A stretch of DNA of 64,000 nucleotides from the NCBI GenBank assembly GCA_977017645.1, contig OZ360219.1:7936001-8000000 (forward strand), read 5' to 3'. The notes below the pieces were generated by a model. It searched no databases. It worked only from the letters and a program-made list of their open reading frames with translations, and had not been told where the DNA came from. Below are positions 7,470-18,408 of the stretch, piece after piece. The translations under genes were made by a program, and so were the position numbers. The number at the start of each line of letters is the position of its first letter. Position 1 is the first letter of the stretch. The DNA comes from Torpedo marmorata (Eukaryota).

Positions 7470-7506
7470 ATGGATTCCAACTGCCGAAAGCATTGCGTCG
7501 AACTAT
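7470..7506 (+). CDS. pitx2: Pitx2a/b first coding exon, MDSNCRKHCVEL plus 1 nt (T)
   Basis: Resembles the Pitx2a/b N-terminus (human METNCRKLVSACVQL). Acceptor TTTTCTCCCCAG ends at 7446 and donor AT|GTGAGT starts at 7507; phase 1. Confidence 0.85.
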
Positions 7507-9533
7507 GTGAGTGATGATGTTTTCTTCATAGATACACCAAAATAAATCGGTTAATACAGGTGTAGAATTTTTAGATCATGTAGATTTTACACATTTCGGG
7601 GCGGAATTAGAGCATAGCGTTAAGCGTTAAGCCACTAAAGCTCATTTCTCCTTGAGGCACGCTTTTGTAGCAATACCCATAGACGATATTTCACTTTGTA
7701 TATGACAGTCTAAAATAATATTTTGAAGTACATATCAGCGCTAAGTAACGTCTTTTTTTCCTTGAGCACAAAACAAATCATTCCAGTACTTAATAAAAGC
7801 AAAATTATATTAAAATATTAATATCGACACGCATTGATAAATCTGACGTTATAAAATTTATAAACCTACATTTTTAAAAAATAAAACATCATATTTCGAA
7901 ATACACTACAAATATAGTCATAATCATTTGCAGAAACCAACATGCCAAATGGCGGTGTGGCATTCCGTGTTGGGTGACATCACATTATTTGACGAGCTCA
8001 TGACATCATCTCTCTCCGGGCCAATAATCTGAAACTAAACAGGTCAATTTGCAGATTTGACCAGATATCTATTGCATCACTAAACCATCTATTTGCATTT
8101 ATGTAACAATTCCTAATCTGGTGCCGGCAGTCAGTGCCGTCATCTCGTGCTTGCTGACCTACATTGTCTCACGGTTGAGGAATGCAACTATTTAAAAATG
8201 TTTGTCCTTATTTTCAATTCCTTCCATTGCCTCACTCGTTCCTATCCTTGTCATCTTCCCTTACCTTATAATTATCCAAGTATCGCCAATTCTTGATCTT
8301 GGTCAACCTTGAAATTCATCTCTCCAACCTTAGCTACCAAGAATGTAGGTTTGAAATTAATTTCTGATGAGTTTAGTTCCACTGAACTGAGCCTGAGATC
8401 TTCCAAATTGTAGGCTGCATGCTTCAATTGACACACACGCAGCACTTGATGTGAGGCATGAATGTGAACCAATTGGAGCTTCTGGCCTGAAAGGTCTGTA
8501 GTTGAGGACACTTACTTAGACCAACAGCAGGTGCGCACGTGTGAGTCCAGGTCGCAGGCTTTTCATCCTGTGGTGACCTGAAGTTCACTCTAAATTACCC
8601 GGATGCTCAGTAATTTTCATGATTTCATGAGAGTTCCACCAAATGTGGGAATCTCTCCGAATCTCGTGGTCTCGTTTTCCTTCTTTAAGCCTAGCTCTTG
8701 GACCAAGTCTTTGGTCACCTACACGCATATCTGCTCCGAGGTTGTAAAGGCGCTATATAAACGGATGTTGCTGTTGTTGTTGCGAAGCACATGATGATGT
8801 TATGGTTGACATTAATTAAGGAGACGGCAAAAGACTGGGACGTGGTTATCAAGCCATTTCTTTTTGCAAGCTTCACCTGCACTGCCCAAAGAATTAGGCC
8901 GTCTAGTTTTTGAGAACTGCATTTTGACTTGATTTAGATTTTAAAAGCCATTTATTTTGCAAGCTTCACCAGCACGACTGTATCAAAGTGGGATCATTTC
9001 AGGGTTCCAACAAAAGGCAGGGGACGGGTGTCGAGTGCACGCACTCCAGGATGTTGTGGAGAAGTGTAACGTAAGGAAAGGGGGAAAATACTCTCGATAA
9101 AATAAATGTTTGCGTGAAAAGGCTATTGAAAATAATTCGAAGCAAATGTTTATTTTAAAAATGTAATTTCCGAAGCCAGTGGTGAAAATCTAGCAATAAA
9201 TGCGGCTGACAATGCAGTTTTGTATTCTGGAATTTTGTCGCCGATCCAAAAGGTTAGTTAGAATCTGACTTCTGTAAGAACCTTGCTGCTAATATTGCTG
9301 ACGTGTTTTGAAAGAGCCACTTGACCCCATTCAGACGATTTCTGAAAATGTGGATTGTAAACGTAATGAAGGAGGCTGTTGTTGAAGGATGCATAAATAA
9401 AGTGAATCGGGAGAACAATCTAAATCAATACAAGATTGAGTTGTCAAAAACTGGACGGTCTAATTCTTTGATTGTATATTTATTTCTTGCAATTATTCGG
9501 TCATGTGAATTTCATTTTTGTTTTCCCTACCAG

Positions 9534-9668
9534 CGTCGCCATCCTCTGTAGTGGAGTGTTTATTTACTAAAGACACAGAAATACGAAAATCAGAAATAAA
9601 TCCTGCAACTGAAGCTGGAAACAGCAGAAAAGACAGTAAATTCCTCAGGCATCACCTCGACTCGAATG
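9534..9668 (+). CDS. pitx2: Pitx2b-specific exon, (S)SPSSVVECLFTKDTEIRKSEINPATEAGNSRKDSKFLRHHLDSN(E)
   Basis: 135-nt phase 1-1 exon with acceptor TTTTGTTTTCCCTACCAG and donor G|GTAGG. It resembles human PITX2B exon 3 (AVECLFSKDSEIKK...SKFFPRQHPGAN). Within ORF 9518..9769. Confidence 0.88.
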
Positions 9669-10756
9669 GTAGGCAACACAAAACAGTTCCCTGTATAAAT
9701 CTAATCTCTAAGTATAAAACCGTGGGTTTATTTTACATTGTCAGGTCTAATGCACAATACTATGCGTAACATCATTCACCATATTAAACCACAAAACTGA
9801 ATTCCTCTACATCCTGTGACTCAAACAGAAAGCAATCTTATATGTGCAATCATCACTTTAAAAATTGTGTTGGAGCGACCTCTACAGTATAGGAGACAAA
9901 TGGAAGTTTTAAATTTTAAACTATTACAAGTGTGAAATCCAAATTCAATTTTAAAATCAAACTCTTCCTCGAATAACAGATCTCGGAGGTTATTTAAGTA
10001 ATTCAGATTTGACGAAACTGTAAATCCATATAATTCAGATAATAAAGTATTGAACATTATCTCTCTATTTGATTCTACAATCCGTTTTGGTTTGTGGTCT
10101 TTAAAAAAAATGCTGCTGTAGATTTGGCCACATTAAAAAGATAAAACTTTCTGCAGACGTATAATCTCCAACGTATGATCTTCCATCGGAGTACATCCAC
10201 CGATGCTATTTGGAAAGAAAGCATATATCTAAAGAGAGGATATCATTCCCACAGCCGATCTTGGTATATTTCTTTACACTTTATTTAATGCCCCCTTTAT
10301 GTGCTGCAGTTTGCCAGCTCGATATTGATAGATGCGGCTTCTATCAATATGCCGCAAAACAACGTTAGCTAGTGTTACGTTTTAAGGTATCAAGTTGTGG
10401 GAAACCTTTATTTCTACCTTCTATTCAATGTTCTTTTTAAATATTGTGTATAGAATTGTCTATGGTGCTAACTGCAGTATGACTTAAATTTGCCAATTAA
10501 CTTGGCCCACGTTTACATGAGAATAACGGGTTTAATCTTTGCAACTATCATTCTACCGGATTTACTCTATAGAGACGATTAAAACACGCAGTTAATTATT
10601 TTACAAAGAAAGAATATCACGTGAGCAATTGTGTTTACATTAAAACAGAATTTAAAAGCAAATGATGGTTGCATTTGGAGATGTATTATATTTTAATTTG
10701 ATCTCAAAGCTTTATGGTTACATTTAAGGATTTATTCGAATTATTTTATGATACAT

Positions 10757-10845
10757 GATAGATAGATAGATAGATAGATATAGATAGACAGAGATTGAGA
10801 GATAAAGTATGTTTGTCTAAGCACGTGCGCGTGTGTGTGTGTGTT
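10757..10845. repeat. (GATA)n then (GT)n microsatellites
   Basis: gatagatagataga... at 10757-10790; gtgtgtgt at ~10830-10845. Confidence 0.9.
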
Positions 10846-16500: not shown

Positions 16501-16819
16501 AAACAATTTGCCACCATCACATCATAAAAAATACATAATCCATGACTTTGGAAAAAAAAGAATATAATCATAACCAGCAATTTTAAACTTCGATAAATGC
16601 AGTGATATTATACCATCAATAAACCTTAAATATGGTTCTGTTTAATTTTTTAAAAAGCTAAGTTCAAAATGCACAGTATTGAAATTACAATGGAAATGTG
16701 CATTATTTTGCTGTGAATTACAAGTGTGTAGTTTTACTCCTGTCGTTTGCCATCACTGAGTGAGACATCGCTCAAGGTGCATTCTGGGGCTCAGACTCTC
16801 CTTCTCCCTTCTGCACCGG

Positions 16820-17402
16820 GCACGTCAGAAACGCAAAAAGGGGCGGGTCTTGAGTCGCGCGATTTTGATTGGTTTGGTGACGTCCAGGCATTCGAATGGA
16901 ATCCCGCCCTTTCCTTCTTTCCACGGGCCAGGGAAGCATGTCAATCTGCGTGAGTGACAGGGAGAAGGGGGAGGCCGGTGGGGAGGAGGATCACTGTGAG
17001 GTTAGCAGAGGCGGCTCCTCTCTTAAAGCCACTGGTGAACAGGGAGCGCGTTTGCGGCAGGAGCAGCGGCAACCTGAGGATCCTTATCTGCAGTTACCTA
17101 TCCCTGTCACTCGGACGCACACACACACACACACACTATCAACCCGGAATAATTCATTCACTGTAAATTCATTGCTTCTCCTCTGTGACATTTTTTATTC
17201 AATTGTTGCACTGGCTGTGTAATGAAGACAGCAGCTCGAAAGCGATCTTAGAAGAAGAGTTGACGGTTTGTGCACTGCAGCTCCTGGATCACCCCACCCC
17301 CTGATCATTCATCCCCCGTTCGTCTTCCTTATTATAAGGTGGGCTGCGAGGAAACTTAACCCTCTTTGGAAACGACGACCGGCAGCTTTTATCTGTTTAC
17401 AG
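16820..17402 (+). promoter_or_regulatory. pitx2: pitx2c intronic promoter and 5' UTR
   Basis: GC box GGGGCGGG 16840-16847, inverted CCAAT 16868-16872, TGACGT 16878-16883, GC-rich, directly upstream of the Pitx2c ATG. Pitx2c is known to use its own intronic promoter. Confidence 0.65.
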
Positions 17403-17586
17403 ATGAACAGTGCAAAAGATCCATTGGCTTTGGATCACCTGAGAAATATCAACAGCGGCAATAAACTAGCACGGGATCAGACAGCTTTAACGATGGCTTC
17501 GGGTTTGCAAGCTGTACGAACAAGCGAGCCCAAGCACCGGCTCGAGGTCCACACTTTATCGGACACCTCCAGCCCTGACACCGGAG
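17403..17586 (+). CDS. pitx2: Pitx2c-specific first coding exon, MNSAKDPLALDH...KHRLEVHTLSDTSSPDTG
   Basis: Carries the Pitx2c motif KHRLEVHT(I/L)SDTSSP; donor G|GTAAG at 17587; phase 1. Joined to 18203-18408 and 20305-20868 it gives 954 nt = 317 aa plus stop. Confidence 0.95.
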
Positions 17587-18202
17587 GTAAGGCCTTTTCC
17601 ACCCGAATGACACCGCATCGATTTCGCTCCCGTAGGACATTATGCCACTTCCTCACTTAATGACATAACTTATTGCGCCTTGAAATATAAATGTAAAGCG
17701 CTTTGGCATCAACCACCATTTTATCAATCATTTCATAAGGGATTATACACACGGGCTTATATTTGTATAAATATGTGCAATGAAATATGTGATGTACCAT
17801 TTGTCAAATATTAAAAATACTGGATAATGCATTCATTATTACAATCTATCTTGGGTCGACTTATACTTTTTTCGTGTAAGGGAAGGTGTTTGACATAAGA
17901 CAACGATTTGGCCAGTGTGTTTCATTGACAAATAAAACGTTGATACACATGCATCGCTTATCACAAAATATTATATTATTCAAATGTGCAAATAAAATCT
18001 ATGAAAAATCCAAACTAAGTTGTTGTCGTTCAAAGTTAAGTAAACCCCTTAATCCTGAGATACCGGTGGAGAAATCCGCGATATGGCTGGAGTTAGGGAG
18101 CTCTCAGATATGGAGAATCTTATTCCTATCGTCGTAAGTGGAACGAATTGTTTGAAGCGGTTGCGAAATCACTGCTCATTATGTGACTCTTTTTATCTTC
18201 AG

Positions 18203-18408
18203 AAAAAGATAAAATCCAACAAAGCAAAAACGATGACACGGGTACAGAGGACCCGTCAAAGAAAAAGAGGCAAAGACGCCAGCGGACCCATTTCACCAGT
18301 CAACAGCTCCAAGAACTGGAGGCAACCTTTCAAAGAAATCGCTACCCAGATATGTCCACGAGGGAGGAAATTGCAGTTTGGACCAATTTAACTGAAGCTA
18401 GAGTTCGG
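18203..18408 (+). CDS. pitx2: Common exon, homeodomain N-terminal part, (E)KDKIQQSK...[50 protein letters not shown]
   Basis: 206 nt, acceptor TTTTATCTTCAG, donor CGG|GTAAG; manual translation gives the Pitx homeodomain. Confidence 0.98.

Follow-up and report, generated by a model that had tools for sequence, protein, structure and literature searches.

Pitx2, a head and left-right patterning factor, occurs in mouse and human as the isoforms Pitx2a, b1, b2, and c (PMC2330153). In both species exon 2 contributes 15 codons, and skipping of the 138-nt cassette exon 3 yields the 271-aa Pitx2a (PMC2330153). Pitx2a is regarded as a conserved vertebrate isoform (PMC8377849), and similar activities have been reported for the Pitx2 isoforms (PMC3267762). 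For zebrafish, pitx2a and pitx2c only are reported (PMC3267762, PMC5932568), a partial a/b/c repertoire like that of Torpedo marmorata. The T. marmorata gene resembles its mouse and human counterparts in exon order, in having two first coding exons, in its phase-1 junctions, and in the common homeodomain and C-terminus, and its exon 3 (135 nt) carries an AG at +39 as theirs does (PMC2330153). It differs in exon 2, which has 12 codons and ends in T, so that skipping exon 3 produces a stop codon.

We analyzed a window of 64,000 nucleotides of T. marmorata contig OZ360219.1 (assembly GCA_977017645.1, forward-strand positions 7,936,001 to 8,000,000), in which exon and frame reading revealed an intact Pitx2 gene on the + strand; all features below lie on this strand. 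Its c isoform was identical at 299–311 of 317 positions to five chondrichthyan Pitx2 records, with the highest identity to Pristis pectinata Pitx2 (311/317), while three further Pitx-like exons of the T. marmorata genome were 81–84% identical, which identifies the gene as the Pitx2 orthologue. A candidate end of an upstream 5' UTR exon (4750..4810, donor CTG/GTAAGT, no in-frame ATG upstream) weakly matched, by tblastn (E 0.004, 7.6 kb searched), the extended 5' part of isoform X2 of Chiloscyllium Pitx2. Exon 2, the a/b-type first coding exon (7447..7506), comprises a 23-nt leader, an ATG at 7470, and 12 codons encoding MDSNCRKHCVEL followed by a single T, and a search of the animal's own genome found it in one copy. 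This junction base, T7506, with the adjoining donor GTGAGT (7506..7512), stands where bony vertebrates have G; the donor showed the weakest U1 pairing among those of exons 2–5 (-6.3 versus -7.7 to -11.4 kcal/mol). Exon 3, the b exon (9534..9668, phase 1-1), had shark Pitx2 homologues with 75–77% identity, and the pyrimidine content of its acceptor (0.82) was as rich as that of any acceptor in the gene. The remaining coding parts are exon 4, encoding the Pitx2c N-terminus (17403..17586); the common homeodomain exon 5 (18203..18408), which begins AA AAA GAT after a CAG acceptor; and exon 6 up to the stop codon (20305..20868).

Joining exon 2 directly to exon 5 combined T7506 with the AA at 18203 into TAA at codon 13, which closes the Pitx2a frame. 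Inclusion of exon 3, which an open frame from exon 2 requires, gave Pitx2b1 with canonical splice sites, junction codons T+CG (Ser) and G+AA (Glu), and 313 aa, the same length as the shark Pitx2 record P0284. Pitx2c, which starts from a separate first coding exon lying before exon 5, was open over 317 aa. The initial annotation had described the stop after 12 codons, the open b and c frames, and an exon 2 three codons shorter than the 15 of bony vertebrates, and each of these held. Its proposal that only Pitx2b and Pitx2c are made fared less evenly: the predicted frames support loss of the canonical Pitx2a protein, but the proposal overlooked the AG at 9571..9573, whose +39 offset equals that of the mammalian Pitx2b2 acceptor (PMC2330153). 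This b2-type acceptor is present and in frame, with a weak pyrimidine tract (0.53); joining exon 2 to it at 9573 makes T+AC (TAC, Tyr) and leaves 300 aa open, so that b2 is a predicted isoform. We consider it probable that, with exon 2 ending in T, the upstream promoter gives no protein unless the transcript includes the b exon.

To extend this to relatives, we compared DNA over 7330–7620, a region outside the boundaries of exons 3 and 5, in 4 of the 18 runs listed for 4650–9700. No RNA run was among those listed, which says nothing about expression. T7506 and the GT donor were identical in the DNA of all four other organisms, with no variant letter at 7504–7508, even though their junction-spanning records differed at 7–23 other letters; exon 2 carried no insertion or deletion. 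The coding differences in exon 2, read by hand, were silent in 4/4 cases, which argues that this exon is still under protein constraint. A degenerate exon-2 pattern had no matches in metagenome contigs.

Protein records were consistent with this pattern. The listings comprised at most 15 members from clusters of up to 200, with Cetorhinus X3 and Mustelus X2, for example, outside them. Among the records listed, all 11 shark Pitx2 proteins carrying exon 2 (four species) ran through Ser into exon 3 and retained Lys-Asp at the +39 b2 site, and none of the 19 chondrichthyan Pitx2 records was a-type. By comparison, the 125 other listed Pitx2 records with the exon-2 motif all had a G-first junction codon (G, E, D, A, or V), and 54 of them were a-type. 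Annotation pipelines would, however, omit a protein for a stop-containing transcript. The junction T was read in DNA from the four other organisms, the shark species being represented by protein only; a shark Ser codon might instead be AGY; exon 2 would then finish in A, leaving the a-type join open (AAA, Lys). T thus stands in all four additional DNAs and Ser in every listed shark protein with exon 2, and what the initial annotation had presented as a trait of this species is shared by four other organisms and consistent with four shark species. From these sequences, cartilaginous fishes likely make only b-type and c Pitx2 and lack the short a form found in bony vertebrates.

Searching 50%-identity representatives with the b exon returned just P0001 and one weak repetitive match, and protein searches returned no b-type protein from chimaera, skate, or ray. 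These searches are insensitive (b-type records exist for bichir, P0015, and sturgeon, P0286, the latter surfacing only through a cluster listing), so they demonstrate neither absence in chimaera, skate, and ray nor loss of b in teleosts.

The direction of the change was examined in related proteins. Pitx1 of bowfin, reedfish, and frog and lamprey Pitx contain a 15-residue N-terminal segment resembling exon 2 (shuffle p 0.0001–0.006) and followed by E or G, although the similarity of the lamprey segment was weak (4/15 identical). The presence of this 15-codon a-type exon in Pitx1 and lamprey Pitx makes it likely that the T at the end of exon 2 is derived. A tblastn search of roughly 30 kb preceding the three paralogous homeodomain exons detected no short exon of the a type, a weak test for an exon of 15 codons. 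We infer an ancestral exon 2 of 15 codons ending in G. The b exon would most likely have become effectively constitutive in the cartilaginous-fish lineage, with the a form no longer required, and exon 2 would then have lost 9 nt and changed its final G to T. The T would persist as the first base of the conserved Pitx2b Ser codon, which makes selection for the stop itself unnecessary, and any exon-3-skipped transcripts would be minor and unproductive.

An alternative we regard as unlikely is that exon 3 skipping persists as an off switch, through NMD or a 12-residue peptide, that tunes Pitx2 dose. Exon 3 remains a frame-preserving cassette, the junction stop is 204 nt ahead of the last junction and hence beyond the 50–55 nt distance applied to NMD substrates, and PITX2 dose matters in humans (PMC5932568). 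However, in LMNA and beta-globin NMD spares transcripts with stops in the first 21–23 codons, and codon 13 falls inside this start-proximal zone of at least 21 codons known from mammalian genes (PMC12776119). The NMD switch raised by the initial annotation is therefore doubtful, although the zone may differ in fish. In zebrafish, moreover, transcript levels stayed close to normal when the pitx2 homeodomain exon carried a stop (PMC5932568), and the Ser codon by itself accounts for conservation of the T.

Somewhat less probable is that the skipped mRNA escapes NMD and is re-initiated at the in-frame ATG within the homeodomain (18352..18354, MSTRE...), giving a 206-aa protein whose homeodomain is truncated and which would inhibit the other isoforms. 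Human PITX2D is such a truncated-homeodomain inhibitor (PMC2330153), and the human 206-aa PITX2 record P0118 begins at the equivalent Met; the frame before the stop spans merely 12 codons, and the ATG follows 147 nt later. Against this, the first ATG past the junction stop (18233..18235, 28 nt downstream, A at -3) is out of frame, opens a 52-aa ORF, and precedes Met 18352, whose conservation is uninformative about re-initiation because it belongs to the homeodomain. PITX2D itself arises from the c promoter and a cryptic acceptor (PMC2330153), whereas a T. marmorata protein from the same internal Met would need re-initiation on skipped mRNA. If this reading were true, the skip that produces Pitx2a, an ancient activator isoform, in bony vertebrates would in cartilaginous fishes lead to a PITX2D-like inhibitor, through a 12-codon upstream frame and an NMD-resistant mRNA. 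Exon 3 splicing would in that case act as a regulated on/dominant-negative Pitx2 switch during development of the eye muscles, teeth, and pituitary.

Marginally less credible again is an a-like 266-aa protein made through the AAG in exon 5 (18206..18208), 6 nt downstream of the main acceptor. The initial annotation had suggested this rescue, and the join 7506>18209 is indeed open here, with T+AT (Tyr) at the junction; it was the sole open a-type join with the normal donor among 11 AG sites from 18158 to 18283, and exon 5 has a compatible Asp as its third residue in T. marmorata and 4/9 others. However, the CAG 6 nt upstream owns the pyrimidine tract, positions -10 to -4 holding five purines for the AAG and one for the main acceptor, and in 5/9 chondrichthyan species (two Scyliorhinus, two Chiloscyllium, and Rhincodon) the third residue is Glu, which with T would give TAA or TAG. 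No record of such a protein was found among the 19 chondrichthyan Pitx2 records listed. Other joins were rejected as well: the remaining five open donor/acceptor pairs required non-consensus donors and mostly lost conserved residues, the +4 GT donor of exon 2 paired poorly with U1 (-3.3), two candidate upstream exons contained no in-frame ATG, and joining exon 2 to the AG ahead of the c start codon was out of frame. An assembly error or private allele at 7506, with Pitx2a normal, is extremely unlikely: T7506 is read from the assembly, and the same T followed by GT in 4/4 other DNAs and the Ser of the 11 shark records, where G would give Ala in frame, oppose it.

The loss of Pitx2a is probably a lineage-wide isoform loss within a known system, with a modest functional effect that would stay small for the animal unless the skipped transcript is regulated. 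The T at the end of exon 2 offers a single-base lineage marker, and for shark developmental biology upstream-promoter Pitx2 would mean the b type. The finding would also date the b exon to the jawed-vertebrate ancestor. We found no publications on Pitx2 isoforms in cartilaginous fishes; subscription journals were mostly outside this search, and an earlier remark in print is possible.

When unproductive (poison) splicing is coupled to NMD, one splice choice gives a premature stop. T. marmorata Pitx2 shares this feature, but its stop forms across a junction when a frame-preserving exon is skipped and lies close to the start, where decay is doubtful. Zebrafish pitx2 presents the opposite loss, keeping a with no b described (PMC3267762, PMC5932568), whereas the T. 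marmorata lineage has kept b and has no open frame for a. If cartilaginous fishes lack a and zebrafish lacks b, each upstream-promoter isoform is dispensable in one major lineage, which would imply that promoter use and dose count for more than the difference between a and b, in agreement with the similar isoform activities that have been reported (PMC3267762).

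The window (G000:C1:7936001-8000000), which lies within the 6.2-Gb Torpedo marmorata assembly, contains the complete Pitx2 gene. The Pitx2c frame read from exons 4–6 comprises 317 aa and is identical to Pristis pectinata Pitx2 at 311 positions and to four shark Pitx2 records at 299–306, in keeping with a ray-like fish. The a/b-type first coding exon (exon 2, 7447–7506), which occurs once in a genome-wide search, holds 12 codons counted from the ATG at 7470 plus one last base, T (T7506), ahead of GTGAGT. Joining it directly to the common homeodomain exon (exon 5, start 18203, first bases AA), as in isoform a, gave TAA at codon 13, and inclusion of the b exon (exon 3, 9534–9668, 135 nt) gave junction codons TCG and GAA and an open frame of 313 aa. 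Re-reading of the exon ends and joins confirmed the initial annotation's description of a junction stop with open b and c frames, and the finding is wider than the single species for which it was claimed.

For DNA comparison at T7506, we took contigs from four other organisms, one run each, out of the 18 runs listed. All four covered position 7506, with no differing letter at 7504–7508. The junction-spanning records showed 7 to 23 differences elsewhere, none had indels in exon 2, and the four exon 2 coding differences (7478, 7487, 7496, and 7503, read by hand) were all silent, indicating that this exon is still under protein constraint. Among 310 fetched proteins, 19 were chondrichthyan Pitx2 records, 11 of which contained exon 2 (from Scyliorhinus canicula, S. 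torazame, Chiloscyllium punctatum, and Cetorhinus maximus); in all 11, exon 2 was of the 12-codon type and read on through Ser into the b exon. The other records with the exon 2 motif, 54 of them a-type, had a junction residue with a G-first codon in 125/125 cases. Thus, the stop held, but the proposed loss of isoform a in one species did not hold as species-specific, given the same T in four other organisms and Ser in all 11 shark records. The shark data are at the protein level, and their Ser may be encoded by AGY; the a-type join would then stay open in sharks. One S. torazame record has a GenBank-type accession (BAK57345.1), from which we infer a cloned cDNA and hence a sign of exon 2–exon 3 splicing.

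The initial annotation's shorter exon 2 was borne out, as this exon spans 15 codons, three more than here, in bichir, sturgeon, lungfish, and tetrapod Pitx2 records, whose junction codon is G-first. Pitx1 of bowfin, reedfish, and frog begins with a similar 15-residue segment (5–7/15 identical to the human type, shuffle p 0.0001–0.0016), which in bowfin runs straight into the homeodomain exon, with Glu at the join; in a lamprey Pitx record, a weakly homologous 15-residue segment at the same place (4/15 identical, p 0.006) also precedes Glu. Because these records share the segment and the G-first junction, the ancestral form was likely 15 codons, G-ending and directly joined, with the 12-codon T form derived. 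The b exon, found in sharks, bichir, sturgeon, and tetrapods, is therefore at least as old as the jawed-vertebrate ancestor. For zebrafish Pitx2, PMC3267762 and PMC5932568 describe just isoforms a and c; our b-exon protein searches were too insensitive to show b loss in teleosts.

Most likely, exon 3 would have become effectively constitutive in the cartilaginous-fish lineage, leaving the a form free of selection; the junction base would then have changed to T together with a 9-nt shortening of exon 2, an order of steps that we infer. T would now be retained because it opens a Ser codon, and its conservation alone is therefore no proof of selection for the stop. U1 pairing of the donor was −6.3 kcal/mol with T vs −11.4 with G; T is thus predicted to weaken the donor. 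Its intron side still matches U1 well, however, and shark records reading exon 2 into the b exon indicate that it is used.

Alternative acceptors were considered within exon 3 and near the exon 5 start. In exon 3, open frames resulted from 5 of 12 AG sites; among these is +39 (9573), at the offset reported for the mammalian Pitx2b2 acceptor (PMC2330153), where Lys-Asp is kept in 11/11 shark records; these candidate acceptors make shorter b forms possible. With junction codons TCG (b1), TAC (b2), and TAA (a), T is thus compatible with b1 and b2 and not a. An in-frame AG at +18 (9552; TAG acceptor, TTG junction, 307 aa) could yield another b variant. Near exon 5, only 1 of 11 AG sites gave an open frame with the normal donor: the AAG at 18206–18208 (Tyr, 266 aa), previously proposed to rescue isoform a. 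Its frame is open here, but it lies 6 nt behind the CAG that owns the pyrimidine tract and has five purines at −10 to −4 vs one for the CAG. With T, the third codon of exon 5 sets the outcome (Asp gives Tyr, Glu a stop); this residue is Glu in five and Asp in four of nine named species, and the putative rescue therefore cannot be general if the Glu species have T.

Elsewhere in the window, a pyrimidine tract and CAG (17375–17405) ending immediately 5′ of the Pitx2c ATG may mark a 5′ UTR intron; exon 2 joined there is out of frame. Four candidate 5′ exons were noted (4750–4810, 4844–4876, 4983–5094, and 6835–6906), three weakly matching the N-terminal extensions by which shark Pitx2 models differ. 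In this sequence, one contains stops and two lack an in-frame ATG, and the annotated extensions are therefore probably translated UTR. The strongly conserved stretch 2499–2618 matches residues 1–40 of a gene model from S. torazame (tblastn E 5e-23) and is probably a non-coding element mis-called as an exon. At 36001–48000 and 58001–60000, GC and AT skews are strong (as high as 0.42) and probably reflect repeats or low-complexity sequence. The genome has four, not three, Pitx-type homeodomain exons. The other three (L002–L004) lie on contigs C44 (10729543–10729746; Pitx1, by match to Mobula Pitx1), C75 (9562422–9562622), and C69 (27489116–27489316); Pitx3 presumably corresponds to one of the latter two, leaving the other as a possible retained fourth paralogue. 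A literature search for 'Pitx4' gave no match among the matches listed.

The Pitx2 isoform system is already well known, and these results would interest specialists in Pitx2 and shark development. Pitx2 a, b, and c are called highly conserved in vertebrates at review level (PMC8377849), and our literature search, which covered subscription journals thinly, found no paper on their state in cartilaginous fishes. Isoform activities are reported as comparable (PMC3267762); the functional effect of isoform a loss would probably be small.

As for a putative exon 3-skipped transcript, the suggested NMD switch agrees with the usual distance rule (the last junction lies 204 nt beyond the stop), but the stop is start-proximal, at codon 13, which makes the switch doubtful. 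In LMNA and beta-globin, stops as early as the first 21–23 codons are reported to evade NMD (PMC12776119). In zebrafish pitx2, a stop placed within the homeodomain exon is reported not to lower transcript levels (PMC5932568). Alternatively, in the boldest reading, translation might start at an in-frame ATG 147 nt past the stop, giving 206 aa with a truncated homeodomain; a human 206-aa PITX2 record begins at the same Met, although an out-of-frame ATG comes earlier, 28 nt after the stop. This predicted product would resemble PITX2D, the human isoform reported to inhibit the others (PMC2330153).
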